Source: Candidatus Rokuibacteriota bacterium
Lineage (GTDB): Bacteria > Methylomirabilota > Methylomirabilia > Rokubacteriales > CSP1-6
Direction: 5' to 3'
Length of the DNA: 64,000 bases
NCBI GenBank assembly: GCA_003220475.1
Contig: QHSO01000015.1
Span: 12,479 to 76,478 of the forward strand
Shown piece by piece: positions 3,327 through 48,131 of this stretch; position 1 is the first letter of the stretch, and every line of letters begins with the position of its first letter. The position numbers were made by a program, and so were the translations under genes. The notes beneath the pieces are model-generated. The model had not been told where the DNA came from. It worked only from the letters and a program-made list of their open reading frames with translations, and did not search any database.

Positions 3327-4021
3327 TCGGTCAGGCGTTGGGCTGGGGCACCGGCGTAGGGGCCGCCGCGTGGGTCGGTTATGCGTGGCTGCCGCACCTG
3401 CTCACGCCGCTGTGCGCACGACGCGGCCCGCGCACCGGCCGTCGCGTGGCATTGAGCTTCGACGATGGCCCGGATCCCGACTGGACAGCACGCGTCCTGG
3501 AGATCCTCGCGAAGCACGACGTGAGCGCGACGTTCTTTCTCGTGGGCGAGCGCGCGGCACGCGCCCCCGCGAGCGTGCGCGCCATCGCCGGCGCCGGCCA
3601 CGAGATCGGCTCGCACAGCTGGTCGCACACGAGCCTGTGGCTGTGCGGCCCGCGCCGCACCGAGCGTGAGATCGCCCAGACGAAGCACCTGCTCGGCGAT
3701 CTCGCGGGCGCTCCCCCGGCGCTCTTCCGCCCACCATGGGGCATGGTCAACGCGGCGATGTTCGCGGCGCTCCGCCGCCACGCGCAGCGCTGCGTGTTCT
3801 GGTCGATCCAGCCGGAAGGTCTGCGGCCGGCGCCGGCCGAAGTCCAGGTCGCGCACGTGCTGCGGCGGGCGCACGCCGGCGCCATCGTCGACCTGCACGA
3901 TGCGGAGGGGACGCCAGGTGCGCCCGCGCGTCTCTGCGAGGCGTTGCCCGCGATGATCGACGGCCTGCGAGCGGCGGGTTACGGCTTCGCGACCGTGGGC
4001 GAGCTGCTCGCCGTCTCCTGA
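3323..4021 (+). CDS. polysaccharide deacetylase (NodB homology domain)
   Basis: The motifs LSFDDGPDP, ATFFLVG, GHEIGSHSWSH and FRPPWG are present. The GTG start overlaps the upstream TGA (GTGA). Confidence 0.85.
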   Translation: MIGQALGWGTGVGAAAWVGYAWLPHLLTPLCARRGPRTGRRVALSFDDGPDPDWTARVLEILAKHDVSATFFLVGERAARAPASVRAIAGAGHEIGSHSWSHTSLWLCGPRRTEREIAQTKHLLGDLAGAPPALFRPPWGMVNAAMFAALRRHAQRCVFWSIQPEGLRPAPAEVQVAHVLRRAHAGAIVDLHDAEGTPGAPARLCEALPAMIDGLRAAGYGFATVGELLAVS

Positions 4022-4076
4022 CGCCGCCGCGCCAGGAAGCGCACGAACTCCAGTCCCTCGCCGAGCCGGCGCTTCA

Positions 4077-5309
4077 TCACCGTGCGATCGCGCAGCATCT
4101 CGGCACCGAGCGCGACGAGCTGCCGCCCTCGAGCGCCTGCTCATAGAGCGCGGTGCCCGGGTACGGCGCGGCGAGCGAGACCTGCAGCGTGTGCGGATCG
4201 ATCTCCTGCGCGAAGCGAATGGTGGTCTCGATCGTCTCGCGCGTCTCGCCGGGCAGGCCGAGGATGAACGTCCCGTGGATATTGATGCCGAGCGCGCGCG
4301 CCGCCCGTGTGAACTCGCGCGCGCGATCCACGCGCGTGCCCTTGCGCACGTTGTTGAGAATGGTCTGGCTGCCCGACTCGTAGCCGACCAGGAGCAGCCG
4401 CAGCCCGTTGTCGCGAAAGACCTTGAGGCTCGCCGCCGGCACGTCGGCCTTGGCGTTGCACGACCAGGTGACGCCGAGCCGACCGAGCCCACGGGCGATC
4501 GCCTCCGCGCGCGGCAGGTCGTCGGTGAACGTGTCGTCGTCGAAAAAATATTCTTTCACCTGCGGGAAGAGTCGTCGCGCGTGGGCGATCTCGGCGACCA
4601 CGTTGTCGACGGACCGCGTGCGGTAGCGATGGCCACCCACCGTCTGCGGCCAGAGGCAGAACGTGCACTTCGAGCGGCAGCCGCGGCCCGTATAGAGCGA
4701 GAGGTACGGGTGCTGCAGATACCCGATGGCGTAGTGCTCGACGTCCAGATCGCGCGCGTACACGTCGACCACCCACGGCAGCGAGTCCATGTCCTCGAGG
4801 ACCGGACGCTCGGGCGTGCGGCGCAGCTCGCCGCCGATGTCGCGGTAGGAAAGCCCGGCGACCGACGCCGGCGGTCGTCCCTCGGCGATCTCGCGGATGG
4901 TGAAGTCGAACTCGTTGCCGCACACGAAGTCGAGCGCGGGCGACGCCGCCAGCGCGGCCTCTCGCTGCACGGCGACGTGCGCGCCGATCAGCCCGATCCG
5001 CAGCGCCGGGTTCTCGCCTTTCAGTGCCTCCGCGACCTTGACGTCGTGGGCGAACGACGGCGCGCTGGTGTGCAGGACGGCCAGCTCGTACTCGCGCGCG
5101 AGCGGCAGCACGTCGGCGAGCGTGAGGTCGGCGGGCGGCGCGTCGACGAGACGCGAGCCCGGCACGAGCGCCGCCGGCTGAGCGAGCCAGGTCGGATACC
5201 AGAACGACCGGATCTCGCGCCGCGCCTGGTAGCGCGAGCCGGCGCCGCCGTCGAAACCCTGAAACGATGGGGGATGAAGGAAGAGGGTCCGAAAAGTCAC
5301 GCGCCCCAT
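4077..5309 (-). CDS. hpnJ: HpnJ-family B12-binding radical SAM protein; the C-terminus appears disrupted (see findings)
   Basis: The N-terminus FLHPPSFQGFDGGAGSRYQARREIRSFWYPTWLAQPAAL and the radical SAM motif GRGCRSKCTFCLWPQT match my recollection of the HpnJ family (TIGR03471). The ORF ends abnormally after LYEQALEGG. A family-like C-terminal motif lies in another frame. Confidence 0.8.
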   Translation of the reverse strand: MGRVTFRTLFLHPPSFQGFDGGAGSRYQARREIRSFWYPTWLAQPAALVPGSRLVDAPPADLTLADVLPLAREYELAVLHTSAPSFAHDVKVAEALKGENPALRIGLIGAHVAVQREAALAASPALDFVCGNEFDFTIREIAEGRPPASVAGLSYRDIGGELRRTPERPVLEDMDSLPWVVDVYARDLDVEHYAIGYLQHPYLSLYTGRGCRSKCTFCLWPQTVGGHRYRTRSVDNVVAEIAHARRLFPQVKEYFFDDDTFTDDLPRAEAIARGLGRLGVTWSCNAKADVPAASLKVFRDNGLRLLLVGYESGSQTILNNVRKGTRVDRAREFTRAARALGINIHGTFILGLPGETRETIETTIRFAQEIDPHTLQVSLAAPYPGTALYEQALEGGSSSRSVPRCCAIAR

Positions 5310-5318
5310 CTTAGCCGA

Positions 5319-5675
5319 TCAGGTCCGCGACACCAGGAAGACGCCCAGCACGATGAAGCCGATGCCCGTCCACCGCAGCGGCGTGACCGCCTCGGCCAGC
5401 ATGAGCTGCGCGAGCAACGCGACGATGATGTAGTTGAGCGTCGTGAGCGGCAGCACCTTGCTCACGTCTTCGCGCGAGAGCAGCGCCATGTAGATGAAGA
5501 AGAAGGCGGCCTGCAGCGCCACGCCGAGCAGCACCCAGGGATTCGACAGCGTGCGGCCGAGCGGCGAGCCGACGGCCGCGGCGCCGACGACCTTCATCCC
5601 CTTGGCTAGAATGACGTGGCCGACGCCGCCGAGCAGGCTGGCGATAGCGACCCACAGCAGCGTGGTCGCCATCAC
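5319..5675 (-). CDS. small four-helix EamA/DMT-superfamily membrane protein (ArnE/ArnF-size)
   Basis: 118 aa and entirely hydrophobic, with four predicted helices and an EamA-like C-terminal GIGFIVLGVFLV. The start (GTG 5675 or ATG 5672) overlaps the upstream stop. Confidence 0.7.
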   Translation of the reverse strand: MMATTLLWVAIASLLGGVGHVILAKGMKVVGAAAVGSPLGRTLSNPWVLLGVALQAAFFFIYMALLSREDVSKVLPLTTLNYIIVALLAQLMLAEAVTPLRWTGIGFIVLGVFLVSRT

Positions 5676-6088: not shown

Positions 6089-6103
6089 TCGGGCCTCCTC
6101 ACA

Positions 6104-6787
6104 TCAATGCGGTCGTAAGCGTCCACCGGCCAGCGTGTAGACCGCGTGGGCGCCGTGGGCGGCGTCGGGCCGATGGCTCACCACGATCACCGCACCGCCC
6201 TCGCGTGCCCGCGCGCGCAACGATTCTAGAATCACCTCGCCGTTGGCGTCGTCGAGATTGCCGGTTGGCTCGTCCGCGAGCAAGAGGGGCGGGTCGTTGA
6301 GCACCGCGCGGCAGAACGCGACGCGCTGCTGCTCGCCGCCCGAGAGCTGGGCGGGATGGTGATCGCGACGCTCCCCCACGCCGAAACGCTCGAGCAGGGC
6401 CATCGCTCGGCGGCGCCGCTCGGCATCGACGCCGGTGGTGTAGCGCGCGCCGAGCAGCACGTTCTCGAGCGCCGTCAGCGCCGGCAGCAGCAGAAACGAC
6501 TGGAACACGAATCCGAGCCAGCGGCCGCGCTCGCGGCTCTTGGCTCCGCGCCCGAGCGTGCTCACGGGGCGGTCGGCGAAGCAGACCTCGCCCGCATCGG
6601 CGTCTTCGAGCAACCCGAGGACGTTGAGCAGCGTGCTCTTGCCCGAGCCCGAAGGCCCCTCGATCACCACGAGCTCGCCGCGGCGCACGACGAGATCCAC
6701 GCCGGCCAGCACCTCGATCGGCGCACCCGCCGGCGCCGCGAAGCGCTTCACCAGCCCGCGCGCGGTGAGGACCGTCTCAGGCGGCAC
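6104..6787 (-). CDS. ABC transporter ATP-binding protein (MacB/LolD/FtsE type)
   Basis: Walker A GPSGSGKST, signature LSGGEQQRV and Walker B LLLADEPTGNLD are present. 227 aa. The GTG start overlaps the permease end by 11 nt. Confidence 0.9.
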   Translation of the reverse strand: MPPETVLTARGLVKRFAAPAGAPIEVLAGVDLVVRRGELVVIEGPSGSGKSTLLNVLGLLEDADAGEVCFADRPVSTLGRGAKSRERGRWLGFVFQSFLLLPALTALENVLLGARYTTGVDAERRRRAMALLERFGVGERRDHHPAQLSGGEQQRVAFCRAVLNDPPLLLADEPTGNLDDANGEVILESLRARAREGGAVIVVSHRPDAAHGAHAVYTLAGGRLRPH

Positions 6788-7991
6788 TGCCCCTCCGAAT
6801 GGCCTCGGCGGGTGAGAGCCGCACGATGCGCAGCGCCGCGTACGCCGCGGCCGCCGCGCCGAGCAGCAGCGAGAACACGAGCGTGCCGCCGAGCAGCCGC
6901 GGCGAGAACAGGAACAGCTGCTGGCCGCTGCGGCGCGCCCAGCCGTCGATGCCGTGACCGAGCGCCAGCGCCAGCACGATCCCCACCGCGCCGCCCGAGA
7001 CCGTCACCGCGAGCGCCTCGGCGAGGATCTCGCCGCCGAGCTGCCAGTCGGTCGCGCCGAGCGCGCGCTTCACGCCGAAGTCGCGGACGCGCTCGAACAC
7101 CGCCGCCGCCACCGTGTTGGCGAGCGACAGCCCGCCGATGACGAACGCGAGCAGCCCGAGGCCGACGAGGAGTGCGGAGAAGAAGGCGGTCGACTGCCGC
7201 AGCAGCGACGACAGCTCGCTGGGGAGCTGGACGTTGACACCGGCGACACGATCCCGGATGCGCCGCGCGACGACGTCGGGATCTTCGCCCTCGCGCCAGC
7301 CGACGGCGGCGCCCGTATTGAGATCCTGCGCGCGCAGCGCGACGCCGCCGGAGGCCAGGACGGTGCGCAGCAGCCGATCCTTGGACACCCATTGATCGCG
7401 CGCATCCTCGATCGAGACGATGACGAAGCGATCGGGCGCGGTCAGCATCCGCTCGAGCACACCGACGACCTCGTACGGCTGGCCTTCCAGCTCGAGACGC
7501 GATCCGACCGCGAGACGCCGCGAGGCGGCGAACGAGGCGCCGATGACGGCCTTGCGACGATCGCCCTCGCGCAGGAACCGTCCCTCCTGCACGGGCAGCG
7601 TGCGGTAGTGGCGATTGGGTGACGGCACCGAGAGATCCATGCCGAGCACGAGTTCCTGCGTGAGCGTCATGAACTGCGAGGTGCTGGGATTGAGCGGCAG
7701 CATCACCTGTGGCTGCACCACCGCGACGCCGTCGACCGTGCGTATCGCCTCGACGGCCGCCGCCGGCAGCAGGCCACCGGCGGTGAAGCCGGCGCCCATG
7801 CCCATCCCCCGCCCCGCGACCGAGATCTGGCCGAGCACGAACCGATCGCCGCCCTCGATGAAGCGCACGATACGCTCGGCCATCGCGCCGAGCGCGACGA
7901 TGCCCGCGACGCCGATGGCAATGCCGGCGATGGTGAACAGGTAACCGCGAAGGACCCGACGCAACGCGTTGATCAGGCTCGCACGCCGCAT
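6777..7991 (-). CDS. ABC transporter permease, FtsX/MacB-like with a periplasmic domain
   Basis: 404 aa. An N-terminal transmembrane helix is followed by a ~200-aa periplasmic region and a C-terminal FtsX-type three-helix bundle (FGVKRALGAT...). Confidence 0.85.
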   Translation of the reverse strand: MRRASLINALRRVLRGYLFTIAGIAIGVAGIVALGAMAERIVRFIEGGDRFVLGQISVAGRGMGMGAGFTAGGLLPAAAVEAIRTVDGVAVVQPQVMLPLNPSTSQFMTLTQELVLGMDLSVPSPNRHYRTLPVQEGRFLREGDRRKAVIGASFAASRRLAVGSRLELEGQPYEVVGVLERMLTAPDRFVIVSIEDARDQWVSKDRLLRTVLASGGVALRAQDLNTGAAVGWREGEDPDVVARRIRDRVAGVNVQLPSELSSLLRQSTAFFSALLVGLGLLAFVIGGLSLANTVAAAVFERVRDFGVKRALGATDWQLGGEILAEALAVTVSGGAVGIVLALALGHGIDGWARRSGQQLFLFSPRLLGGTLVFSLLLGAAAAAYAALRIVRLSPAEAIRRGSAA

Positions 7992-8031
7992 CGCAGACTC
8001 GCCTCGGCCGTGGAACGGCCTGCGGCTCGCA

Positions 8032-9297: not shown

Positions 9298-10346
9298 CAG
9301 GACCCTGTCCACGCCGTGCCGACCGCCATCGCCGCCGGCGCGGGCTCCGCGTGCAGACGCTGCTGCGCGTAGAGGGCCACGATGAGCGCCGTCAGCGCCG
9401 GCACCCGCAACCCGGTCAACGCGGCCAGCACGAGCAACGGCAGCACCAGCGGCAGCCCCAGCACCGCGGTCGCCGCCGCCACCGCGCGACGCGGCCGTGG
9501 ATGGCGCCACCACCACGCGAGCCGACCGCCGGCGCGGCGCACGGCGAGCAGCGCGATCATCGATCCCCACGTCATCCCGCCCGCGTACGGCGCCGCCGTC
9601 TCGAGGAGCGCGGCGTGTCGCTCGCGGGCCAGGCGCCCGGCCACGACCGACGCGATCTCGCCGCCGGCCGCCGCCACCTCGCGCGCGCCGCGCGCGATCG
9701 AGCGGCCGGCGAGGTGCGCGCCGATCGCAATCCCGTCGACGACGGGACGGAACCGGCTGCGCGCCGCCACGCGCGGCAGCGCGCGCACCGGCACTTCGCG
9801 GATCGTCCAACCGTGCCCGGCCGCCGCCAGCAACACCTCCGTCTCGAACACGAAGCCGCCGTGGTGCGCGGACACCTCGTCGAAGATCTCGAGCGGATAG
9901 ACGCGAAAGCCAGACTGCGTGTCGATCAGCCGCAGTCCGCTCGCCCAGTTGACGAAGAAGCCGGCGACCACGATGGCCTCGGCGCGGCCCGGCGGCAGCG
10001 CCGCGTCGCCGTAGAGCCGCGCGCCCACGACCAGCGTGCGCGGTGCGGCGGCGGCGAGCAACGCCGGCACGTCATCCGAGTCGTGCTGGCCGTCGGCATC
10101 CAGCGTGACGACGTGCGTGGCGCCGCGCGCGCGCGCCGCCGCCACGCCCGTGCGCAGCGCCTCCGCCTTGCCGCACCGCCGCCGATGACGGCAAACGTCG
10201 GCGCCGGCGAGCGCCGCCGCCTGCGCGGTCCCGTCGGTCGAGCCGTCGTCCACCACGATGACCGGTGCGTGCCGGCGCGCGCGGCGCACGACGTCGCCGA
10301 CCGTGGTGGCCTCATCGTGCGCGGGGACGACGACGAACGTGTTCAC
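9297..10346 (-). CDS. family 2 glycosyltransferase (DPM1/ArnC/ApeJ-like) with a C-terminal membrane anchor
   Basis: The motifs are VVVPAHDEATTVGDVV, VIVVDDGSTDGT and VTLDADGQHD (DxD). C-terminal transmembrane helices are present. The GTG start at 10346 forms a GTGA overlap with the upstream stop. Confidence 0.8.
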   Translation of the reverse strand: MNTFVVVPAHDEATTVGDVVRRARRHAPVIVVDDGSTDGTAQAAALAGADVCRHRRRCGKAEALRTGVAAARARGATHVVTLDADGQHDSDDVPALLAAAAPRTLVVGARLYGDAALPPGRAEAIVVAGFFVNWASGLRLIDTQSGFRVYPLEIFDEVSAHHGGFVFETEVLLAAAGHGWTIREVPVRALPRVAARSRFRPVVDGIAIGAHLAGRSIARGAREVAAAGGEIASVVAGRLARERHAALLETAAPYAGGMTWGSMIALLAVRRAGGRLAWWWRHPRPRRAVAAATAVLGLPLVLPLLVLAALTGLRVPALTALIVALYAQQRLHAEPAPAAMAVGTAWTGS

Positions 10347-11413
10347 GCGGCGTCCACGAGCAACGCCACGTGGGCGCCGCCGCGCGCGAGCCCGTGCACG
10401 AGCCCGCGTCCCGGCCGGACACGCGCGACGTGCGCCGTGCCGTTCACGACGGGCAGCAGACCGGAGCGCGCCGTCCACGCGGCGGCCGCGACGCGCAGCA
10501 CGCCTAATCCCGCGTGACGGCCGAGCAGCCGGCCGAGGCTCGACACCGGTGGCCCGCCGGGAAGCGCGGCGCCGAGCACCGCTTCTTCCCAACGATCGCG
10601 CGGCTCGTCATCGCTGGCTGATGCGTACACCCAGCCGACGTCGCCGGGCTGCGCGCCCGCCGCGCGCAACACGGCCTCGATCGCCTGTGAGCGGCGGGCG
10701 CGTCCGACGCCCCATGGACGGGAACGCAGCGCGCGCCAGGCCGCTGCGCTCACCTCGCCCAGCACCGTGGCGCCGCGCGCGTGCGCCGTCGCGCGTGGCT
10801 CGAGCACGAGGAACGCCGCCCCCTCGCCGCGACGCTCACCGGCGAGCCCCAGCCGCCTCAGCTCGTGCTCGACGACGGAATCGAGCTCGTCGACGCCGCC
10901 CACGAGCACCGCCGGCACGCGCCCGCTCGCGACCGCCGCCGTCGCGCGGGCGACCGCAAGCTCGCCGGCCACGGTCGGCGCATTGAGCGTCAGCGCCATC
11001 TCCCGCGCGCCGACCGCGATGGCCGTCGTCGCGATCATCGTGTTCATCACCGTGTTCGGAAAGAGCAGGGCGGACAGTCCCGCCGGGCCGCGGGCGAGGA
11101 AGCCGTCGGCGAACGCGTGCGTCGAGCCGAGGTCGCCGAATTCCGTCCCCACGACGAGTCCGAGCGCGGCGTCACGCTCGAGCCCGGACTCGCGCAGCGC
11201 CAGCCGTGCCGCGGTCACGGTCAGCTGGCAGACGCGCGACAGTCGCCGCGCTTCGTCCGGATCGACGAGAGCGGCGAGCGCGCCGGCGCCGAACGCGGTG
11301 TCCGGCGGTGCCACGGGGGCCGCGAGGAACGCACCGAGCGCCGCGGAGTCGCCGGTGACGGCGGCGCTCACGACGCCGACGCCGGTGATCGCGACGCCGG
11401 ACCGCGTCGTCAT
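10343..11413 (-). CDS. beta-ketoacyl synthase-like protein lacking the active-site Cys (chain-length-factor-like)
   Basis: 356 aa with a thiolase-fold KS pattern (ITGVGVVSA...). The nucleophile position reads LNAPTVAGE instead of TACSS. ATGA overlap with the upstream KS. Confidence 0.75.
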   Translation of the reverse strand: MTTRSGVAITGVGVVSAAVTGDSAALGAFLAAPVAPPDTAFGAGALAALVDPDEARRLSRVCQLTVTAARLALRESGLERDAALGLVVGTEFGDLGSTHAFADGFLARGPAGLSALLFPNTVMNTMIATTAIAVGAREMALTLNAPTVAGELAVARATAAVASGRVPAVLVGGVDELDSVVEHELRRLGLAGERRGEGAAFLVLEPRATAHARGATVLGEVSAAAWRALRSRPWGVGRARRSQAIEAVLRAAGAQPGDVGWVYASASDDEPRDRWEEAVLGAALPGGPPVSSLGRLLGRHAGLGVLRVAAAAWTARSGLLPVVNGTAHVARVRPGRGLVHGLARGGAHVALLVDAA

Positions 11414-12594
11414 GCCACGCCGCGGCGGAAGAGCAACGTCACGTTCTGACCGCCGAATCCGAACGAATTGGAGATCGCGCACGTCAGCGGCGCGGCGCGC
11501 GAGACGCGCGGCACACAGTCGAACGGCACGTCCCCGTCCGGCGTGACGAGGTTCGCCGTCGGCGGCACGACGCCGTGCTCGAGCGCGAGCACGGTGGCGA
11601 TCGCCTCGAGGCTGCCGGCGGCGGCCATCGTGTGGCCGATCATCGACTTCGCGGAGGAGACGAGCAGTCCGCCCTCGCCGAAGACCCGTGCGAGCGCGCG
11701 GGCCTCGATGCGATCGTTTTGCGGCGTGCCGGTGCCGTGCGCGTTGGCGTACTGCACCTCCGCCGGCGCGGCGCCCGCCACTCTCAGCGCCGCCGTCATC
11801 GCGCGCACCATGCCGTCGCCCTCGGGTTCCGGCGCCGTCACGTGGAACGCATCGGTCGTCATGCCGTGCCCCGCGAGCGTCGCGTACACGCGCGCGCGTC
11901 GCGCGCGGGCACGCGCCTGGGACTCGAGCACCAGGAAGCCGGCGCCCTCGCCGATCGACATCCCGCGGCGCTCCTGATCGAACGGACGGCACGGCGCCGG
12001 ATCGAGAATCTTCAGCGCGTTGAAGCCCATGAAGCAGATGCGGGTGATCGCGTCGACACCGCCGGCGACCGCGACGTCGACCACACCGTCGGCGATCAGC
12101 TCGGCCGCCTCCGCGAGCGCGACCGCGCCCGAGCTGCACGCCGTGACGACCGTGTGCCGCGGACCGCCGAGGCCCAAGCGGCTCGACAGCGTTTCGGCGT
12201 GCGCGGAGGGCAGCATGGCGCGTACCGCGCGGACGGAGGCGGGCCGCGCGCCCTCGCGCGCGCCGCGCCAGTACCACGCCTCGGCCTCCAGCATGCCGCC
12301 GCCGACGGCGCCGACGACGAGCGCCGCCGCGCGGCAATCGCGCGCGCCGAGGCCCGCATCCGCGAGGGCCTCGGCGGCGGCGGCGATGGCCAGACGGTCG
12401 GCGCGCGTGCGGCGCGCCGAGCCCGCAGGCGTTCCGGGGACCTCCGCGCCGATCCGGCAGCGGAAGCCCTCGGTCTCGATCAGCGTGAGGTCGCGGATCG
12501 TGCAGACGCCGGCGGCGAGCCCCTTCCAGTACGCGACGAGCCCCGCGCCGTATGGACTGACGGCGCCGAGGCCGGTGATGACGACCGACTTCAT
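11410..12594 (-). CDS. beta-ketoacyl-ACP synthase (FabF-like KS)
   Basis: 394 aa. The active-site motifs TACSSG, HGTGTPQND and GHTMAAAG are present, and the C-terminus reads NSFGFGGQN. Confidence 0.9.
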   Translation of the reverse strand: MKSVVITGLGAVSPYGAGLVAYWKGLAAGVCTIRDLTLIETEGFRCRIGAEVPGTPAGSARRTRADRLAIAAAAEALADAGLGARDCRAAALVVGAVGGGMLEAEAWYWRGAREGARPASVRAVRAMLPSAHAETLSSRLGLGGPRHTVVTACSSGAVALAEAAELIADGVVDVAVAGGVDAITRICFMGFNALKILDPAPCRPFDQERRGMSIGEGAGFLVLESQARARARRARVYATLAGHGMTTDAFHVTAPEPEGDGMVRAMTAALRVAGAAPAEVQYANAHGTGTPQNDRIEARALARVFGEGGLLVSSAKSMIGHTMAAAGSLEAIATVLALEHGVVPPTANLVTPDGDVPFDCVPRVSRAAPLTCAISNSFGFGGQNVTLLFRRGVA

Positions 12595-12873: not shown

Positions 12874-13749
12874 CTATGTTGCGACCGCGATCTGCGCGCG
12901 CCGGCCGCGCCAGCGCCCGGTGACGCGCGCGATCGGCATTCCGGCGGCACGCGCGAGCGCCAGCTCCACGAGCGGCGCGCACGCGAGCGTCTCGCCCGCC
13001 CGGCGCGTGACCAGCGTCTCGAGCGTCGAGGCGGCGCCGGGACCGTATCCTATGTCCGCGTCGTCAGCGCCCGCGAGCACGGCGCACGCCGCGGCCTCCA
13101 CCAGCGGGCGCGGCGTCACCCAGCGGCCGCGCGTCCAGAGATCCGCACATTCCTCGAACGTCTCCACCGCGAGCACGAGCGCGAGATCGGCGTCGCCGGC
13201 CGCGAGCAGCGTACTCGCCTGCCACAGCGCGTCCACGCCGGCCGATGCCCCGCCCACAAGAATGACATACCCGCCCGTCAACCCATACTCGATCGCGACC
13301 TCGGCTGGCACCGAGCTCGGAGCCGTGTACGGAAAATAGATGGCGCCGCCCGTTTTCGCGCGGCCGGCACCCTCGGTCGCGCCCGGACTCTGGGCCTCGA
13401 TCGCGACAACGCCGTCCGGTCCGCCGTTCGCCCGGACCTGGCTCGCGGCCTCGGCCACGATGAAGCGCTTGTTGCTCGCGCCGTATGCCGCCGCCGTCAC
13501 GTACACCAGCGCCGTCCGCGACCCGGCCACGGCCGCCCGATCCAGAGCGCTGTCGCGCAGCGCCGCTCCCACCGCGGCCACCCCCAGCAGGCACTCGCGC
13601 GTCGCGCGCCGGAATCGCTCGCCGGCGATGGCCGGCGTCGCCATCGGCACCACGCGGCGCTCACCCGCGGCGCGGCGCGCGTCGTCGGGCAGCGCGGCGA
13701 CGCCCTCGCCCCACGCGGTCAGCAGGCCGACGCCGAGGACGCGCGTCAC
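12874..13749 (-). CDS. truncated KS-like protein without a catalytic Cys (second CLF-like partner)
   Basis: 291 aa with a KS N-terminal-like fold. The nucleophile position reads LVGGASAGVDAL. The GTG start forms a GTGA overlap with the upstream KS stop. Confidence 0.65.
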   Translation of the reverse strand: MTRVLGVGLLTAWGEGVAALPDDARRAAGERRVVPMATPAIAGERFRRATRECLLGVAAVGAALRDSALDRAAVAGSRTALVYVTAAAYGASNKRFIVAEAASQVRANGGPDGVVAIEAQSPGATEGAGRAKTGGAIYFPYTAPSSVPAEVAIEYGLTGGYVILVGGASAGVDALWQASTLLAAGDADLALVLAVETFEECADLWTRGRWVTPRPLVEAAACAVLAGADDADIGYGPGAASTLETLVTRRAGETLACAPLVELALARAAGMPIARVTGRWRGRRAQIAVAT

Positions 13750-26264: not shown

Positions 26265-26459
26265 ACGATACCACTTGAACATGGGGGCCCCGACATGGCC
26301 CCCATACCCCCAGCGCTCGTCACGCCCCGGCGACGCCGGGGCGCTCCTCGATACCACGTGAACATGGGAGCCCCGACATGGCCCCCATACCCCCAGCGCT
26401 CGTCACGCCCCGGCGACGCCGGGGCGCTCCTCGATACCACGTGAACATGGGAGCCCCGA
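26265..26459. repeat. 83-bp tandem direct repeat, about 2.35 copies, each unit carrying two GC-rich hairpins
   Basis: Units start at 26265, 26348 and 26431. Copies 1 and 2 differ at 2 of 83 positions. The 29-nt partial copy 3 is identical to copy 2. The hairpins are GCCCCGG-cgacg-CCGGGGC and GGGGGCC-ccgacat-GGCCCCC. Confidence 0.9.
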
Positions 26460-32103: not shown

Positions 32104-32773
32104 CGAAATCCGGAGCCGCCCCGGCCAGGCTCGTCGACACGGCGGTGTCGAGCGCGAAGTCCCGCGTGAGCCGCCAGATGACGCCCGTCTGCACGCTGAG
32201 CCCGTCGCGCCCCTCGCGCGTGTCGCGCGAGGCGAAGGCCAGCTCGACGAAGCCGCTGAGCCCACCGAGCAGACGCCGGGACAGCGAGGCGGACGCCCGC
32301 GCCTGGACGAGGTGACCACTCGACCGGCTCTGACCGACGAGCACGGCGCCGGCGTTGACGTCGAGCGCGAAGTCCGACGGCAGACCGAAGGAGGCGAGGA
32401 GCAAGAGGCCGGCGTCGGTCTCGCCCGAGCCGATCGGCTCCTGCGCGGTAGGCAGTTTGACGAACGGATTCAGCGCGAGCGCCGGCCACCATGCGCCCTC
32501 GGGCGTCGCGAGGAAGCGATACTTCAGCCCGAGGGTGAAGTCGCCCACGTCGGTCTCTTCGCGGCTGTTGTCGATGCGGACGACCGGCTCGGCATCGACG
32601 CGAAGCTCGATGCCGTCGGCGATGCCAATGCGCAGCGTCTCCGGACGATCGGGATCGATGACGTCGTCGTTGGCTCCGCATGCGGGCGCGGCGGCGAGCG
32701 CGACGAGGGCGACGGCGGCGAGCGCGCGCCTCAGGACATCGTCCCCGTGTAGCGGGCCTTCAGCGCCTCCCAC
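32066..32773 (-). CDS. putative outer-membrane beta-barrel protein (MetA/phenol-degradation-type transporter-like)
   Basis: A signal-like segment LRRALAAVALVALAAAPACGA is followed by alternating beta-strand patterns and a C-terminal aromatic residue (SVRFGR). DPDRPE resembles the family's N-terminal motif. The start is unclear (GTG 32773, or CTG 32734 overlapping the upstream TGA). Confidence 0.5.
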   Translation of the reverse strand: MGGAEGPLHGDDVLRRALAAVALVALAAAPACGANDDVIDPDRPETLRIGIADGIELRVDAEPVVRIDNSREETDVGDFTLGLKYRFLATPEGAWWPALALNPFVKLPTAQEPIGSGETDAGLLLLASFGLPSDFALDVNAGAVLVGQSRSSGHLVQARASASLSRRLLGGLSGFVELAFASRDTREGRDGLSVQTGVIWRLTRDFALDTAVSTSLAGAAPDFGVRAGFSVRFGR

Positions 32774-34352: not shown

Positions 34353-35029
34353 GCCGACGCACCTCCCTGCACCGCATGGTGATCGGCGATCCAGCGCCGC
34401 ACGCCGGTCTCCAGCGCGACGCGCGTTGCAGACGCCGCCGCCCAGCCGAGCGCGGTGAGCGGTCCTCCGTACCGACAGCGCGGGCCGCGCGCTGTCGCGG
34501 CCACGACGATGGCGTCCGACGAGGTGCCGGTGGCGGGACGGCCGTCGTCACAGCGCACGCCCGCCGTGCGAAGGACGTCGGTTTTCACCTCGGTCAGCGT
34601 CATGACCAGATTGACGAGCGCCGCGGGCTCGGGGTCGGCGTCCAGCACGGCGATCGTATTGATCGTCGCGGGCAGCGGCTCGGCGCGCGGGCTCAGACCG
34701 GCCGCGCTCGGATTGCTGAGACCGACGGTGGCGACGACGAGCGCACGCACGTCGTCGGCCTCCGCGGTCGCCATCTCCGCTCGCTCCGTCCACGCGCCGG
34801 TCAGGAGACCAACCCACGGCGCCGGAACGCCGAGGCGGCGGGCGGCGTCGGCCACCGCCCCCGCCGCGTCGGCGCAAAGGAAGTTCTTCGGCACGTGCAC
34901 GTTGAGGACGCTGCGCGCGCGGGCGAACCCGCCGCCGACGACGGCCGACGAGAGCACGATGAGCTCGCGCTCGGCGGTCACGACGACGGCCTCCGGCCCC
35001 ACCCGCGTTGCGACGCCCTCGAGACTCAC
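34349..35029 (-). CDS. cbiZ: adenosylcobinamide amidohydrolase CbiZ
   Basis: 226 aa. The motifs LSSAVVGGG, LLTGA, TVGLSN, INTIAVLD and LTEVKT are consistent with the CbiZ family as I recall it. The GTG start forms a GTGA overlap with the btuB stop. Confidence 0.8.
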   Translation of the reverse strand: MSLEGVATRVGPEAVVVTAERELIVLSSAVVGGGFARARSVLNVHVPKNFLCADAAGAVADAARRLGVPAPWVGLLTGAWTERAEMATAEADDVRALVVATVGLSNPSAAGLSPRAEPLPATINTIAVLDADPEPAALVNLVMTLTEVKTDVLRTAGVRCDDGRPATGTSSDAIVVAATARGPRCRYGGPLTALGWAAASATRVALETGVRRWIADHHAVQGGASA

Positions 35030-39850: not shown

Positions 39851-41370
39851 GCGGTCACCACGCTGAGCGGACGGCGCGCGAGGCGGCCGAGCGCGTCGAG
39901 GTCGAGCGCGGCCGCCACGCGATCGGCCAGCCGATCGTAGCGATCGCCGAGCGCGTCGGTGCCCCAGCGCGGATCGGGGGCGACGCCGCGACGCGCGGCC
40001 GCCGCGGTCAGCAGCGCGCGCCGAAGCGGGCCGCTCGAAAAGCAGCCGTGCAGATAGGTGCCGAGCACGCCGCCGGTGCGTCTGCCGTCGACGGCGGCCG
40101 GCGCGTCGCCCACGCGCTCGCCGAGCGCAAACACCGGCGCGCCGCCGCGAACGACCGTCTCTCCGCAATGGATCTCGTAGGCGTCGACGTCGGCGCCGGC
40201 CGCGGCATCGAGCGGGCCGCCGGGGAGGACACGGCCGCGCACGCGCCTCGTGGTCTTCGTCCGAGCGAACGTCGTGACGACGGGCAACAGTCCGAGCCCG
40301 CGCGCGCTGGCGACGTCCGACTCCACATGATCGGGGTCGTCGAGATGCTCGCCGAGCATCTGGTAGCCGCCGCAGATGCCGATGACGACGCGGCCGTCGC
40401 GGGCGGCGCTTGCGGTCGCGCCGTCGAGACGACGGTCGCGAAGCCACGCGAGGTCCGCGACGGTTGTCTTGCTCCCCGGCAAGACGACGACGTCGGCGTC
40501 GGCGAGCGTCTCCGGGCGACTGGCAAAGCGCACGGCGACGCCCGGCTCGGCTGCCAGCGGCTCGAGGTCGTCGAAGTTAGCGATGCGCGGCAGCCGCGGC
40601 ACCGCCACCACGACGCGCGGCTCGCCGATGTCACGCGCGATGCCGTCGAGACCGAGCGAATCCTCTTCGGGGAGTGGCGCCTCACCGAGGTGAGGCACCA
40701 CGCCGAGTATCGGCACGCCGGTTCGCGCGCTGAGCAGATCGAGGCCCGGATCCAGCACGCTCGGGTCACCGCGAAAGCGATTGATGATGAGCCCGGCGAC
40801 GCGCGCGCGGTCCTCGGCAGCCAGCAACGCGAGCGTGCCGATGAGCGCCGCGAACACGCCGCCACGGTCGATGTCGCCGACCAGCAGCACGGGCGCCTCT
40901 GCCAGCGCCGCCACACGCATATTGGCGAGGTCGACGACGAGATTGATCTCGGCCGGGCTGCCGGCGCCCTCGATGACGACGAGGTCGTGCGCCGCGCGCA
41001 GCCGTCCGAGGCTGTCGGCGATCACGCTCCACAGCACCGGCGCGAGCGCGCTGTACTCGCGCCACCGTAGGCTGCCCACCGCGCGACCTCGCACGACGAT
41101 CTGTGAGCGGTCGTCGGCCTCCGGCTTTACCAGGATTGGGTTCATGTCCAGCGTCGGCTCCACGCCCGCGGCGGCCGCCTGGACGGCCTGCGCGCGGCCG
41201 ATCTCGCCGCCGTCGGCCGTGACGGCGGCGTTGAGCGACATGTTCTGCGCCTTGAACGGCGCCACGCGGTAGCCCGCCCGCGCGAAGATCCGACACAGGG
41301 CGGCGACGAGGAGACTCTTGCCGACACCGGAGGCGGTGCCCTGCACCATCAGGCACGGCGCCGCCGTCAT
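39847..41370 (-). CDS. cobQ: cobyric acid synthase
   Basis: 507 aa. The motifs are [24 protein letters not shown] and the GATase region GICGGYQMLG. Confidence 0.93.
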   Translation of the reverse strand: MTAAPCLMVQGTASGVGKSLLVAALCRIFARAGYRVAPFKAQNMSLNAAVTADGGEIGRAQAVQAAAAGVEPTLDMNPILVKPEADDRSQIVVRGRAVGSLRWREYSALAPVLWSVIADSLGRLRAAHDLVVIEGAGSPAEINLVVDLANMRVAALAEAPVLLVGDIDRGGVFAALIGTLALLAAEDRARVAGLIINRFRGDPSVLDPGLDLLSARTGVPILGVVPHLGEAPLPEEDSLGLDGIARDIGEPRVVVAVPRLPRIANFDDLEPLAAEPGVAVRFASRPETLADADVVVLPGSKTTVADLAWLRDRRLDGATASAARDGRVVIGICGGYQMLGEHLDDPDHVESDVASARGLGLLPVVTTFARTKTTRRVRGRVLPGGPLDAAAGADVDAYEIHCGETVVRGGAPVFALGERVGDAPAAVDGRRTGGVLGTYLHGCFSSGPLRRALLTAAAARRGVAPDPRWGTDALGDRYDRLADRVAAALDLDALGRLARRPLSVVTA

Positions 41371-42728
41371 CGCCGCGCCTTCGCGCAGGCGTCGACGAAG
41401 CTCTCCGCGAGAGCGGGATTCGACGCGAAATGCAGGTGCATGTAGCTCAGCAGGGCGCGACCGACGACGTAGCCCTCGGCCCGCGAGGCGCCACCGTGCG
41501 CGGCCACCGTGTATGCGCGGGGTACCGTCGTCGGCACCGCGGTCAGCGTCGAGAAGTGGAACTCATGGCCGCGCGCGCGCGTGCCTGTGGGTCCCAGCAG
41601 CGTCGGCAACGTCAGTGTCACGTCCACGTAGCCGAGTGACATCCGCAGCGGCCGCATCGTCACGTGGCCCGGCAGCACGCCGACCATTTCGTGCGTACGT
41701 CCGTGGGCGTCTTCGAGCGACTCCGCCAGGTACATGAGGCCGCCGCACTCCGCGTAGACGGGACGACCCTCGTCGAGCACGAGGCGCCGCACGCTCTTTC
41801 GGCAGCCCGCGTTGTCCGCGAGTCGCTCGGCGTGGAGCTCGGGATAGCCGCCGCCGAAATAGAGGCCGTCGACGTCCGGCGGCTCGGCGTCGGACAGGGG
41901 GCTCCACTCGACCAGCGCCGCGCCCATCGCGCGCAGCAGGTCGAGGTTCTCGGCGTAGTAAAACTGGAACGCCGGATCACGCGCGATCCCGATCGTCACC
42001 CGGGGGCGGACCACGACGCGCGGCGGCACGTCGAATGCGCGCGACGGGGCGAGCGCCAGCAGATGATCGAGCTCCAAACCCCGCTCGACGGCATTGGCCA
42101 TCCGCTCGAGGCGGGCGCGATCGAGCAGGCCTTCGGCGGCGGTCGCGAGGCCGAGATAGCGCTCCGGCATCGCCCAGCACGTGTCCTCGCGAGCGATGCC
42201 GCCGAGGGGGACGGCGCGGCACGTCGCGCGGATCGCCTCCATCACCGAGCGTGCGTGTGCCTCGCCACCAACGCGGTTGAGGATGGTGGCGGCGACATTC
42301 AGGGCAGGATCGAAGCGTTCGAAGCCCAGCACCGTCGCCGCGGCGCTGCGCGCCTGGGCGGAGGCGTCGACGACGAGGACGACCGGCGCGCCGAGCCACT
42401 TGGCGATCTCCGCGGTCGATCCGGTGTCGTTGCTCGTGTCGGCGCCATCGAAGCAGCCCATGACTCCCTCGACGATCGCGACGTCGGCGTCCGCCGCGTG
42501 ACGCGCGACGGTGGCCATGACGGTCTCGCGACCGCACATCCAACCATCGAGGTTGTACGAGGGCCGGCCGCTGGCCACCGCGTGCAGACCCGCGTCGATG
42601 AAGTCGGGCCCGACCTTGAACGGCTGCACGACGAGCCCGCGGCGCCTGAGCGCAGCCAGCAGCCCAAGCGTGATCGACGTCTTGCCGACGCCGCTCGCGG
42701 TACCGGCGACGACGAGGACGCGCGTCAC
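41367..42728 (-). CDS. cbiA: cobyrinate a,c-diamide synthase
   Basis: 453 aa. The motifs are [35 protein letters not shown] and HEFH. The GTG at 42728 forms a GTGA overlap with the stop of the cobT C-terminal frame. Confidence 0.88.
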
Positions 42729-43658
42729 GCCGGACCATCCACGCCGGCGGATTTGAACGTGGCCATCTCCGTGTAGAGCCGCGCGGCCGCGCGCGCGAGG
42801 TGCACGAACAGCGCGGCGCCCGTTCCCTCGCCGAGCCGCAGACCGAGGTCGAGATAGGGCACGAGCGCGAGATGCGCGAGCGCGCGGGCGTGGCCGGGCT
42901 CCGCCGAGCGATGCGAGGCGAACATCGCATGAACCGAGGCAGGGGCGATCGTGGCCGCCACCGGGGTCGGGCCGATTCAGCGCGAGGGCGCGCTGCACGG
43001 CGTCGACCTTGCGCCGCCAGCCGTCGTCATCCACGCCGGTGCCGCGTCCGGTAACACCCTCGGGGTCCGCGCCCGTGATCGCCGCGGTGATCGCGCTCGC
43101 CGCCGTCGTGTTGCCGATGCCCATCTCACCGGTCGCGACCAGATCGGCGCCCGCATCGATCGCGCTCGAGACCAGCCGCGCACCGCGCTCGATCGCGGCC
43201 TCCGCCTGCGCGTGCGTCATGGCGGGACCGCGCGTCATGTTCGCGGTGCCGGCGGCGAGCGGACAGCGGACCAGCGCCTGATCGCGCTCCGGCGAGCCGC
43301 CGATCGGGTTGGCCACACCAAAGTCCGCGACGATCACGCGCGCCGAGCAGTCGCGCGCAAGGACATTGACCGCGGCGCCGCCGCGGACGAAGTTCTCGAC
43401 CATCTGCGCGGTCACCGACTGCGGATAGGCGCTCACGCCCTCCGCGACGACGCCGTGATCCGCGGCGAAGGTAAAGATCACCGGCTGCGCCACGCGCGGC
43501 GGCGCCCCCCGCAGCGCGAACATCCGCACAGCCAGCTCCTCGAGCCGACCCAGGCTGCCGGGAGGCTTCGTCAGCGCGTCGAGATGGCGCTGGGCCTCGG
43601 CGGCAGCGGCCGCGGGCGGCGCGACGATCGCCTCGACCAGCGCGCGCAGGCCGCTCAC
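42725..43658 (-). pseudogene. cobT: nicotinate-nucleotide--dimethylbenzimidazole phosphoribosyltransferase CobT, interrupted by an internal deletion and frameshift
   Basis: The N-terminal ~228 codons (KPPGSLGRLEELA...GEMGIGNTT...[10 protein letters not shown]) are in one frame. The C-terminal 78 codons ([23 protein letters not shown]...[10 protein letters not shown]) are in another. About 40 residues expected between them are absent. Confidence 0.8.
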
Positions 43659-44182: not shown

Positions 44183-44216
44183 GCCCAGGTCCTCCCGCGA
44201 AGACCGGAATCGCAAG

Positions 44217-44854: not shown

Positions 44855-44898
44855 GCTGCACCTCCGCGCACCGATAGAAGCGAGCGGTATGCCAGCGA

Positions 44899-45554
44899 CT
44901 ACGCTTTCTTGTCGGCGTACGAGACGGCGAGGCCGGCGCCGGCATCGGCCTGGATGCCGTACGGCGGGATCGGATAGCGCAGCCCGTTCTTGTCGAGCGC
45001 GGCGAGCCCCTCGATCACCTTCGGCAGAAACCGCGGGGGGATCGCCATCAGGAGCTCGTCGTCGGCCACCCCGCCGTAGCGCCGCTCGGCGTAGCACGGA
45101 ATCGTGAGCGCCGGCTCGCCGGTTTTGAGCGCCTTGCCCCAGGAATCCGCGCACGCAGACTCGCCGACCGACGTGAACGACAGCTTCCGATAGCCGCTCC
45201 ACTGCAGGCCGTTGATGAAGAAAATCATCTGGCCGGGAGTGCCATAGATGAGGCAGATGTCGGGCGGATTCAGCCGACCCGATGTCAGCGGTGCGACCGC
45301 CATCGCGCGATAGCGTCCGTGCGGCACGCAATCCATCGCGTGCTGGTGTGCGCTGGCATCCTCGATGGTCTTGAACCAGACGCCGGCCATACGCTTGCCC
45401 GAGAGCCACTCGGAATCTTGAGGGTCGTTTTCGGGATCGCCTCCATCGCCTCGACGGTCTCGAACAGCTTCATGCCGATCGGGATCGAGCGAAGCCTGAG
45501 GTAACGGTTGAGCCCCTCGACGATCGCCTGCCAGTCGTAGGTGTCGGTATTCAT
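44899..45554 (-). pseudogene. DUF169-family protein interrupted by a frameshift and probable internal deletion
   Basis: The N-terminal 48 codons (MNTDTYDWQAIVEGLNRYLRLRSIPIGMKLFETVEAMEAIPKTTLK) are in one frame. The body (..DSEWLSGKRMAGVWFKTIEDA...GESACADSWG...LRYPIPPYG) is in another. The junction is near 45400-45420. Confidence 0.7.
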
Positions 45555-45590
45555 CCAGCGCCTCCGGAGCGCCATGATACCGTCGTGTGG

Positions 45591-46448: not shown

Positions 46449-46460
46449 GCGGGGCCTCGC

Positions 46461-46826
46461 CTACGCTCCGCGCAGTCGATCCAGGGCGCGGCGCTCGCGC
46501 TTGGTCGGCCGCCCCGCCCCCGGGGGCCGAACGGGCGGCGCGGCCCAGCGGGCGCGCGGCGGCTCCGGCGGGGTGAGATCCTCGTAGAGGAGGCGCGCGT
46601 GCGCGGCCCCACCTCGACGCTCGTCGAGGCCGGCCACCTTGAGCACGCGTCGGCGTCCCTGCGGAAGCGTGACCTTTATATAGTCGCCGGGGCGGACGGC
46701 CTTGGCCGGCTTGGCGGCCTGGTCGTTGATGTCGACCTTTCCTCCGTCACACGCGTCGGCCGCCAGGCTGCGCGTCTTGAAGACACGTGCGGCCCACAAC
46801 CACTTGTCGATCCTCAGCGAATCCAC
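46461..46826 (-). CDS. hslR: ribosome-associated heat-shock protein Hsp15 (S4 RNA-binding domain)
   Basis: 121 aa. The N-terminus reads LRIDKWLWAARVFKTRSLAADACDGGKVDINDQAAKPAKAVRPGD. Confidence 0.85.
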   Translation of the reverse strand: MDSLRIDKWLWAARVFKTRSLAADACDGGKVDINDQAAKPAKAVRPGDYIKVTLPQGRRRVLKVAGLDERRGGAAHARLLYEDLTPPEPPRARWAAPPVRPPGAGRPTKRERRALDRLRGA

Positions 46827-46849
46827 GCGCCGACGGTATCATACGGTCC

Positions 46850-47524
46850 GTGCGTGTCAGCTCCGTCATCGTCCCGCTCGCCGTGTTCGTGGTCGCCGCC
46901 GTCGCTGCCCCCGACGAAATCGTCATCGAGGACTGGAAAGCATACAAGGTCGGCGCGATAGGCCTGCCCGGCCAGTGGACAGCGCAGAATTGGGGCACAC
47001 CGAACTATCAGAACATCAAGATCGTCGACGATGACGGGCGTCGCGCGCTCCACATGAAGAGCGTCAACGACAGCATCACGCTCAACCGCGACATCAAGGG
47101 TAAGGTGCGTCTCAAGGACACGCCGATCCTCGAGTGGGAATGGAAATCGATCGCGCTGCCCAAGGACGGTAACGCGTGCAAGAAGTCAACGGATGACGAG
47201 GCGGCGCAGATCTACGTCGTCTGGCCGCGCTTTCCCGAGCACATGCGCTCGCGCATCATCGGCTACGTCTGGGACACGACGCAGCCGGCCGGCACCATCT
47301 GCCGGAGCGAAAAGATGCGTACGGTGACCTACATCGTGGTGCGCTCTGGTTCCACCGACCTCAACAAATGGATCACGGAGAAGCGCAACGTGGTCGAGGA
47401 CTTCGAGAAGGTCTACGGCGATGCGCCCGACGTCCCTGCCGTGCTCTCGCTATCCACCGACTCCAACGACACGAACTCGACGTCGGAGGCGATGGTCGGC
47501 ACAATCCGCTTCAAGAGCGAGTGA
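46850..47524 (+). CDS. secreted DUF3047-like protein, copy 1
   Basis: 224 aa. The start is GTG. A signal peptide is followed by TPILEWEWKS...DDEAAQIYVVWPRF...IGYVWDT. The family name is from memory. The paralog lies immediately downstream. Confidence 0.75.
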   Translation: MRVSSVIVPLAVFVVAAVAAPDEIVIEDWKAYKVGAIGLPGQWTAQNWGTPNYQNIKIVDDDGRRALHMKSVNDSITLNRDIKGKVRLKDTPILEWEWKSIALPKDGNACKKSTDDEAAQIYVVWPRFPEHMRSRIIGYVWDTTQPAGTICRSEKMRTVTYIVVRSGSTDLNKWITEKRNVVEDFEKVYGDAPDVPAVLSLSTDSNDTNSTSEAMVGTIRFKSE

Positions 47525-47553
47525 CCCGCGTCTGCGCCGGTATCATAGGATCC

Positions 47554-48131
47554 ATGCGCCCTCGTTCCGTGATCGTCGCGCTCGCCGTGCTCGCGCTCGC
47601 CACCGTCGCCACCGCCGCCGCCTCAAGATCGTTGACGATGACGGCCGCCGCGCGCTCCACATGAAGAGCGCCAACGACAGCTCGACCATCAACCGCGACG
47701 TCAAGGGCAAGGTGCATCTCAAGGACACGCCCATCCTCGAGTGGGAATGGAAGTCGATCGTACTGCCCAAGGGCGGCAACTCCTGCAAGAAGGCGACGGA
47801 CGACCAGGCAGGACAGATCTTCGTCGTCTGGCCGCGCTTCCCCGAGCAGGTGCGTTCGCGCGTCATCGGCTACGTCTGGGACACGACGCAGCCCGTGGGC
47901 ACGATCTGCAAGAGCGAGAAGACGGGCACCGTGACCTACGTCGTGGTCCGCTCCGGCTCCGGGGATCTCAACAAATGGGTCGCGGAGACGCGCAACGTGG
48001 TCGAGGACTTCAAGAAGATTTACGGCGAGGCGCCCGAGGACCCGGCGATCCTCTCGCTCTCCATCGACTCCAACGACACCGGCACGACGTCGGAGGCGAT
48101 GATCGGCGCTGTTCGGTTCAAGAGCCAGTAA
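47554..48131 (+). pseudogene. DUF3047-like protein, copy 2; the signal peptide is out of frame with the body
   Basis: The signal peptide from ATG 47554 (MRPRSVIVALAVLALATVATAAA) runs into a stop at 47664. The body (LKIVDDDGRRALHMKS...RFKSQ) is in a different frame. About 33 residues present in copy 1 (IVIEDWKAYKVGAIGLPGQWTAQNWGTPNYQN) are missing. Confidence 0.7.

Follow-up and report, generated by a model that had tools for sequence, protein, structure and literature searches.

The internal losses that break hpnJ, cobT, DUF169 and the second copy of DUF3047 in the 64,000-nt stretch of Candidatus Rokuibacteriota DNA analysed here (the window) are, with a probability of roughly 90%, scaffold joins and not biological deletions. 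Three lines of evidence favor this reading: gaps that the assembly itself marks with N carry the same offset of ~100-130 nt, the lesion class is found genome-wide and is private to this assembly, and the conserved cores of housekeeping genes are struck. The preliminary description of the window had listed an assembly or consensus artefact as the first of three possible causes, and this evidence now strongly favors it. In the organism itself, the four genes are most probably intact.

All four genes are interrupted at the places indicated by the preliminary description (Table 1). The clean loss of about 33-46 codons with a change of frame that it reported is measured here, in the order given above, as 133, 131, 124 and 100 nt; none of these lengths is divisible by 3, and all four losses are flush and frame-breaking. 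The main hpnJ frame matches TIGR03471 (HpnJ) at positions 2-391 of 472 (E 9e-196), and its N-terminal part shows 88-94% identity to relatives; their open frames run to 481-565 aa unless cut by a contig end. Four relatives of the same genus (G003, G007, G004 and G011) all give exactly 133 nt in the DNA alignment, and the stop codon of the C-terminal piece lies at 3979-3981. A search of public sequences with the HpnJ protein, aimed at another assembly from this population, gave no hit above 92% identity. cobT, encoding the DMB phosphoribosyltransferase, lacks 131 nt when aligned with four relatives, and 131 nt likewise in HSP chains against three. Its N-terminal part enters cobB in frame, yielding a 763-aa ORF (41367-43658) that also matches positions 3-420 of the CobB profile; the resulting CobT-CobB "fusion" is spurious. 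The loss of 124 nt in DUF169 is obtained by alignment with G003 and G011 as well as from the HSP chains of G003 and G004, and the main ORF of this gene keeps only the late portion of PF02596 listed in Table 1. In DUF3047 copy 2 the first translated piece, MRPRSVIVALAVLALATVATAA, resembles the signal peptide of copy 1. Here the loss amounts to 100 nt relative to copy 1, G004, G007 and G005, while G003 gives 97 and G010 gives 94.

Each of the four lesions was compared with 2-5 relatives, and every comparable relative is intact. The four losses of 100-133 nt are in keeping with the similar sizes noted earlier. The earlier impression, gained by eye, that the junctions have no obvious direct repeats also stands: with the missing segments taken from relatives, no direct repeat of at least 4 nt is present in the flanks and missing-segment ends at the four breakpoints. 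In GC content the missing pieces are unremarkable and equal to the flanks, and GC-driven dropout of coverage was rejected on this ground. Inversion instead of deletion was rejected as well, given that the two flanks adjoin directly and no frame contains the profile positions that are missing. Nothing contradicts the earlier list of other genes that read through intact.

The earlier census was correct in its four frame-breaking lesions and missed an additional, in-frame case, which sits in a signal-peptide/lipoprotein-like gene on the minus strand (ORF 32066-33016). At this fifth join the HSP chain against G003 shows a query gap of 0 and a subject gap of 117, and the alignment agrees; with its polarity taken from this one comparator, the sequence comparison suggests that the loss belongs to the present genome. 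A scan of the whole window with HSP chains against three relatives, in which sizes are read from HSP coordinates with an uncertainty of about 2 nt, reveals no private flush intragenic loss beyond these five. Seven other breaks in the chains (6100-6128, 7983-8014, 13338-13454, 26274-26456, 46847-46859, 53140 and 54183-54291) are not lesions of this class; they are ordinary intergenic or gene-content differences, in which some relatives are alike.

Table 1. Gene parts and flush joins in the window (positions are those of the whole stretch)
Feature	Position	Strand	Basis or remark
hpnJ C-terminal piece, shifted frame	3979..4121	-	translation LVALGAEMLRDRTVMKRRLGEGLEFVRFLARRRQE... aligns with 3' end of relatives' hpnJ
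Flush join in hpnJ, 133 nt missing	4121..4122		alignment A1
hpnJ N-terminal part	4122..5318	-	open frame continues to stop at 4077 (ORF 4077-5318)
Fifth flush join, 117 nt missing, in frame	32639..32640		HSP chain and alignment A5
cobT C-terminal piece, shifted frame	42725..42952	-	NF000996 positions 273-347 of 350 (ORF 42725-42976)
Flush join in cobT, 131 nt missing	42952..42953		alignment A2
cobT N-terminal part	42953..43658	-	NF000996 positions 4-230 of 350
DUF169 C-terminal part	44899..45426	-	PF02596 positions 85-208 of 209
Flush join in DUF169, 124 nt missing	45426..45427		alignment A3; position good to a few nt
DUF169 N-terminal piece, start MNTDTYDW...	45427..45554	-	alignment A3; translation in three frames
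DUF3047 copy 2 start codon and signal peptide	47554..47620	+	frame ends at 47664
Flush join in DUF3047 copy 2, 100 nt missing	47620..47621		alignment A4
DUF3047 copy 2 domain part, shifted frame	47621..48131	+	PF11249 positions 13-197 of 198

The window belongs to a metagenome-assembled genome (MAG) built from short reads, the "contigs" of which are really scaffolds. The source assembly is a high-GC MAG of 329 scaffolds with an N50 of 23.8 kb and a completeness of 92%, and its scaffolds contain 24 N-runs, which vary from 1 to 208 N. These N-runs allow the joins to be calibrated, by comparing the number of Ns with the true gap in relatives. Twenty N-runs are measurable. We find that 16 of the 20 are too short: judged against 1-4 relatives per site, the true gap is larger than the number of Ns by 65-138 nt, with a median of 112, and at the 13 of these sites with at least two relatives the values are concordant to a base or two. 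Three others (C70, C172 and C229) have about the right length or are too long, and C182 is ambiguous, as the relatives differ on its gap (196 vs about 298 nt). The run in C173 consists of 5 N between flanks that are 100% identical to G007:C159 and G004:C720, both of which have 106 nt in the gap; this one N-run can thus be checked directly in identical sequence, and the search with the HpnJ protein found no identical counterpart for the window's own joins. Regression over the N-runs gives true gap = 1.08 x N + 106 (r = 0.95). For N = 0 a loss of ~106 nt is therefore expected, which is near the 100-133 nt measured in the window. The five window lesions show no difference from the N-run excess by the Mann-Whitney test (p = 0.34). 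Flush losses overall exceed it by ~18 nt on average (128 vs 110 nt, p = 0.012), so that a simple model of one and the same offset is only approximate.

How might such losses arise? In the scaffolding step, read pairs would link neighboring contigs, and the gap between them would be written as an N-run of a length estimated by the assembler. In the present assembly this estimate falls short by roughly 100-130 nt. A positive estimate would produce an N-run that is too short, and a zero or negative one would cause the contigs to be butted without any N, a join that would look like a deletion with clean edges, some 70-160 nt long. Because such joins would fall at chance contig ends, they could be expected in any gene and in any phase, without repeats at the junctions and in this assembly only. 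The algorithmic cause may be bias in estimating gaps from paired ends, the trimming of ends, or error correction at a later step. Gap-spanning read pairs exceed the library mean in length, which biases scaffolders (Sahlin et al., bioRxiv 10.1101/023929, and an earlier scaffolding paper cited there); that the bias makes the gap too small is our own derivation from the longer spanning pairs. We suggest that bias of this kind acted here, and trimming of contig ends could yield an equal offset. Judging by the lineage and by the varying length of the N-runs, our guess is that the MAG was assembled with IDBA-UD. Soil Rokubacteria MAGs have been built with this program (PMC6784897), and local assembly errors without read support are described as prominent in its scaffolds (Chen et al. 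2020, Genome Res, PMC7111523).

Editing after assembly, through an error-correction or re-assembly script, the stripping or shortening of N-runs, or the removal of unsupported sequence at joins, is the strongest competitor of the scaffolder, and we regard it as unlikely. Pipelines for MAGs of this type do run scripts that excise unsupported regions and insert Ns (PMC7111523, PMC6784897), and the three N-runs that are about right or too long suggest more than one origin of Ns. The clean linear dependence of the true gap on N length, with its slope of 1.08, points however to an estimator with a constant bias and not to ad hoc edits. Editing, too, would be a technical artefact, differing from the scaffolder explanation only in the program responsible.

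The preliminary description had also proposed scanning the rest of the genome for the same class of lesion, and the class is indeed found genome-wide. A frame tracker based on a codon model, which recovers all four window lesions, detects 293 same-strand frame switches at which the upstream stop is over 30 nt distant; for 191 strong candidates among them the distance exceeds 60 nt. Candidates at 30-60 nt include normal gene overlaps, such as 31168 (cbiB/argS), scpB/rluB and pilN/pilO; counts are taken from the >60-nt class and were validated by sampling. ispDF/cysS and glnE/polA are normal gene boundaries. At many of 80 sampled sites, one and the same Pfam family continues across the break but lacks 31-50 profile positions; small profile gaps of 4-10 aa, resembling small frameshifts, occur at only two (adh_short and Response_reg). 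When 22 sampled sites were measured against 1-4 relatives, the loss was 71-162 nt with a median of 130, and at nearly all of them two to four relatives are concordant to within a few nt. Altogether, all 27 measured sites fall within 71-162 nt and all are private to this assembly. The lower bound lies near 70 nt, no deletions of about 30-65 nt having been seen. The families struck are diverse, and gene function and reading phase are immaterial (one case in the window is in frame). We estimate one silent join per 13-25 kb of the MAG, breaking or shortening some 200 or more genes. Relatives have private flush losses of their own, of ~175 nt in G003 (at window positions 9508-9681) and of ~86 and ~116 nt in G004 (11337-11417 and 34949-35045).

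Conserved cores of housekeeping genes are affected, including polA, murB, folK (HPPK), nadE, mfd and the prfA/prmC boundary, while the rest of these genes is 80-93% identical to relatives. In polA the missing segment lies between "...AERMAMNA" and the last 37 residues, which we take to be the expected place of motif C of family-A polymerases; in mfd the first part of the helicase domain is affected, the expected site of the Walker A motif. A motif search finds rpoB, ftsZ, dnaK, gyrB and others as single unbroken frames, and did not find the rpoC motif in this MAG.

Since MAGs are composites of populations, rare deletion variants might have existed beside intact genomes, the assembler taking the deleted path at many loci; one related genome, G004, has 8% contamination and divergent duplicate copies of some loci. 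We consider this very improbable. Hundreds of variants of ~130 nt would have had to arise independently within one population, each beating the majority path, whereas De Bruijn assemblers normally retain the path of higher coverage. Moreover, the size class is equally narrow in housekeeping genes and in others, and the equal shortfall of the N-run gaps is left unexplained. Slightly less probable still are genuine, fixed deletions of ~70-160 nt that pseudogenize many genes through a lineage-specific process, such as end-joining repair after double-strand breaks. The deletions are present in the deposited sequence, their junctions lack long repeats, as expected from end joining, and a putative LigD-like protein, identified by eye, is encoded at C173. 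Yet the N-marked gaps show the same loss of 65-138 nt, which is beyond any biological process. Likewise, the size range is narrow with a floor near 70 nt, every lesion is private and none is common to sister species, polA, murB, folK and nadE are broken while the remainder of each gene is conserved, and some 200 or more broken genes are at odds with a marker completeness of 92%. That the flush losses are real products of a soil-lineage process acting across related populations (for example imprecise end joining, with ~130 nt lost per repair), the match with the N-runs being coincidental, deserves just as little credence.

Under the scaffold-join reading, hpnJ, cobT, DUF169 and DUF3047 are to be counted as present, and presumably as functional, and the biology of the window is ordinary. 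The consequences reach further than this region, as the MAG stands as species representative in a genome collection with one genome per species. Errors of this kind pass into pseudogene counts, calls of "gene loss", discoveries of fusion proteins and protein-family alignments derived from it, and sister MAGs with the same lesions call for the same caution in counts and alignments. Calibration of N-runs against relatives provides a read-free means to recognise the artefact in other assemblies.

How do these lesions compare with known systems? As in the genome decay of recently host-restricted bacteria, many unrelated genes are interrupted, often with a shift of frame. Decaying genomes display a broad spectrum of lesions (nonsense mutations, indels of 1-2 nt, IS insertions and large deletions) of varied ages, some of them common to relatives. 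Here, in contrast, the lesions form essentially a single size class, every one of them is private, and conserved housekeeping genes are among those struck; neither a wide range of types and ages nor a sparing of indispensable genes is found among the 27 measured sites and the housekeeping genes. Deletions mediated by slipped strands or direct repeats likewise remove tens to hundreds of bases cleanly from within a gene. They require flanking direct repeats, whereas in the relatives' sequences no repeat of at least 4 nt flanks the four junctions. A close likeness is to the IDBA-UD scaffold errors (PMC7111523), in which the consensus at a join misrepresents the genome inside otherwise good scaffolds, beside N-gaps of estimated length, and through which protein-coding genes enter public databases in truncated or incorrect form. 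The two differ in that unsupported sequence and Ns were there inserted despite an overlap, while here a near-constant loss of ~106-130 nt, including at joins without N, is quantified by comparison with relatives. The lesions also resemble the gap-size bias of paired-end scaffolding (bioRxiv 10.1101/023929), in which a naive estimator errs systematically and would produce a fixed offset comparable to the intercept of 106 nt.

The losses inside hpnJ, cobT, DUF169 and the second copy of DUF3047, which a preliminary description had placed at about 100 to 140 nt, are real. Measured against related genomes, and for DUF3047 against copy 1 as well, bases are missing while the flanks abut without Ns, and none of the four sizes is a multiple of three, so that every one of them breaks the frame. 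The HpnJ C-terminus is still present in a different frame that ends at 3979-3981, and in relatives whose gene lies wholly within a contig the open frame is 481-565 amino acids long. The start codon and signal peptide of DUF3047 copy 2 (from 47554) lie in a frame that differs from that of the domain. Because the cobT lesion puts the N-terminal part of that gene in frame with cobB, a 763-aa ORF resembling a CobT-CobB fusion (window 41367-43658, minus strand) is a by-product of the join and no real fusion. The two DUF3047 genes stand in tandem (46787-48131) with 77% protein identity; relatives carry one copy, and the next 640 nt or so are unrelated sequence.

With the missing segments taken from relatives, no direct repeats of 4 nt or more occur between segment ends and flanks at the four junctions, as had been judged earlier by eye, and the segments have the GC content of their flanks. 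Comparison of the whole window by DNA with three relatives adds one flush case, bringing the number of lesions to five in 64 kb; elsewhere, breaks in the chains of alignments fall between genes or reflect gene-content differences common to at least one relative.

Lesions in the window and scaffold gaps elsewhere in the genome (junctions are given as the two abutting bases; C-numbers are scaffolds)
Feature	Position	Loss or true gap (nt)	Ns	Remarks
hpnJ ORF	4077-5318			minus strand; HpnJ equivalog model positions 2-391 of 472
hpnJ flush loss	4121/4122	exactly 133		DNA alignment, four relatives
cobT N-part				profile positions 4-230 of 350; in-frame read-through into cobB
cobT C-part				profile positions 273-347; different frame
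cobT loss	42952/42953	131
DUF169 main ORF				only profile positions 85-208 of 209 left
DUF169 loss	about 45426/45427	124
DUF3047 copy 2 domain				positions 13-197 of 198 matched; intact at first sight
DUF3047 copy 2 loss	47620/47621	100		against copy 1 and three orthologues
Fifth flush loss	32639/32640	117		in frame; lipoprotein-like gene; against related genome G003 only
Gap	C5	137	2
Gap	C15	89	3
Gap	C51	316	178
Gap	C62	148	24
Gap	C65	214	100
Gap	C81	185	64
Gap	C91	134	43
Gap	C141	138	28
Gap	C146 (first)	about 243	150
Gap	C146 (second)	212	95
Gap	C159	73	8
Gap	C173	106	5
Gap	C234	172	35
Gap	C245	194	87
Gap	C271	122	1
Gap	C276	112	9

The same class of lesion, for which the preliminary description proposed a wider scan, recurs across the genome. 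Frames were followed with a seven-state Viterbi tracker whose codon model was trained on long ORFs of this genome; all four frame-breaking joins in the window have a switch called at most about 25 nt away. Genome-wide the tracker yields 293 same-strand switches in which the upstream frame stays open for more than 30 nt past the switch; in 191 of them, the strong candidates, it does so for more than 60 nt, and the weaker class (30-60 nt) takes in normal overlapping gene boundaries. Eighty strong candidates were chosen at random and 120 residues on each side scanned against Pfam. In many, the two flanks match one family, and 31-50 positions of its profile are absent between them; examples are BPD_transp_2 (40 missing), LigXa_C (49), DctM (45), PALP (32), DUF885 (31), VWA_CoxE (47), AMP-binding (48), WbqC (34), Amidase (33) and TctA (35). 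Only two of the 80 look like small frameshifts, with gaps of 4-10 amino acids; apart from these no losses of about 30-65 nt were seen, and there is therefore no continuum from small deletions. A composite DNA query built from 27 same-family sites and searched in four relatives gave a loss for 22 (71-162 nt, median 130), with two to four relatives agreeing within a few nucleotides at nearly all; sizes read from HSP coordinates are accurate to about 2 nt. In polA, which lacks about 129 nt, the frame stops after '...AERMAMNA', and the final 37 residues stand in a different frame; the roughly 43 residues gone presumably include the place where motif C of family-A polymerases should fall. Also affected are murB, folK, nadE and mfd, as well as the prfA/prmC and rph/rdgB boundaries, and the surviving parts of broken genes keep 80-93% identity to their orthologues. 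We estimate the total at about 200 or more frame-breaking joins, with roughly half as many again in frame.

What, then, produces these joins? The genome is a short-read metagenome-assembled genome (MAG) of 4.8 Mb in 329 pieces (completeness 92%, N50 23.8 kb, GC content 66-76%), and 20 relatives are fragmented likewise. It holds 24 runs of Ns, 1 to 208 in length, which are scaffold gaps with lengths estimated by the assembler. We queried 250 nt on each side of every run in four relatives. At 16 of the 20 measurable runs the relatives' sequence between the flanks far exceeds the N count, at least two relatives being concordant to one or two bases in 13 of these 16. At these runs the excess amounts to 65-138 nt (median 112), and by the intercept of the regression, true gap = 1.08 x N + 106 (r = 0.95), a join with zero Ns should fall short by about 106 nt. 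The flush losses in the window, 100-133 nt, are statistically indistinguishable from this excess (p = 0.34); those in the larger genome sample average about 18 nt above it (p = 0.012), which makes the offset model approximate. Three runs have roughly the right length or exceed it, and that on C182 is ambiguous, the relatives disagreeing about gap size.

The 5-N run on C173 lies between flanks that match contigs of two other genomes at 100% identity, and these contigs have 106 nt in the gap. Within C173:1-1830 (locus L035), the first 1570 nt and at least 250 nt past the run are 100% identical to contigs C159 of genome G007 and C720 of G004, the remainder of the scaffold being about 85% identical; the identical stretch, judged by eye, appears to encode a LigD-like protein, and chimerism of the scaffold, contamination common to these genomes or recent transfer could each account for it. 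Outside the window, a palindromic GGGGGGCCCCGAAATGGCCCCCC element flanks the N-runs of C38 (about 3840-4087) and C65 (about 3700-4010), and tandem repeats of about 68 nt (CCCAACGCGCGTCGCGCCCCGAGAGAATCGTGGCGCTCCTCGATCTCGCC...) occur there as well; this repeat family evidently interrupts the assembly.

Three causes had been put forward, an assembly or consensus artefact, population heterogeneity collapsed in the MAG, and a genuine deletion-prone mechanism, and it is the first that the short scaffold gaps support. A biological deletion process could not leave N-gaps too short by the very amount that is missing at the flush losses; a scaffolding offset accounts for both. We therefore take the lesions, confirmed as observations, to be an assembly artefact and no biological feature, with a probability of about 0.9. 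All are private to this assembly. The genomes of two relatives have private flush losses of their own, at places intact in this genome and in the remaining relatives, of about 175 nt in G003 (window 9508-9681) and of about 86 nt (11337-11417) and 116 nt (34949-35045) in G004; the artefact thus extends beyond one MAG. A protein search with HpnJ turned up no further assembly of this very population that covers the window, the closest public HpnJ being only 92% identical; the nearest that carry names are metagenomic, one labelled Candidatus Rokuibacteriota.

Three further differences were seen in the window. At 5319-5322 about 1.7 kb is absent that all three of G003, G004 and G007 have between hpnJ and the minus-strand gene that follows it; the break is flush and falls at a gene boundary, and either a difference in gene content or a larger loss during assembly may lie behind it. 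At 54183-54291 this genome has about 100 nt of unique intergenic sequence, single copy within it, that all three relatives lack. At 53140-53143 a 72-nt in-frame insertion occurs in G007 only, this genome, G003 and G004 being without it; it resembles ordinary natural variation and stands in contrast to the artefact lesions.

As to how the flush losses arose, we infer a scaffolding mechanism. Read pairs would have linked contigs of about 10-25 kb with gap estimates biased low by roughly 100-130 nt, and contigs with estimates of zero or less would have been abutted directly; contig-end trimming or k-mer bookkeeping could give the same offset. A low-side bias is expected where a global mean insert size is used, since gap-spanning pairs exceed the average in length (bioRxiv 10.1101/023929). 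In IDBA-UD scaffolds, local assembly errors without any read support have been described as prominent and as one origin of wrong protein sequences in databases (PMC7111523), and Rokubacteria MAGs from soil were assembled with IDBA-UD and later subjected to 'scaffolding-error correction' (PMC6784897).
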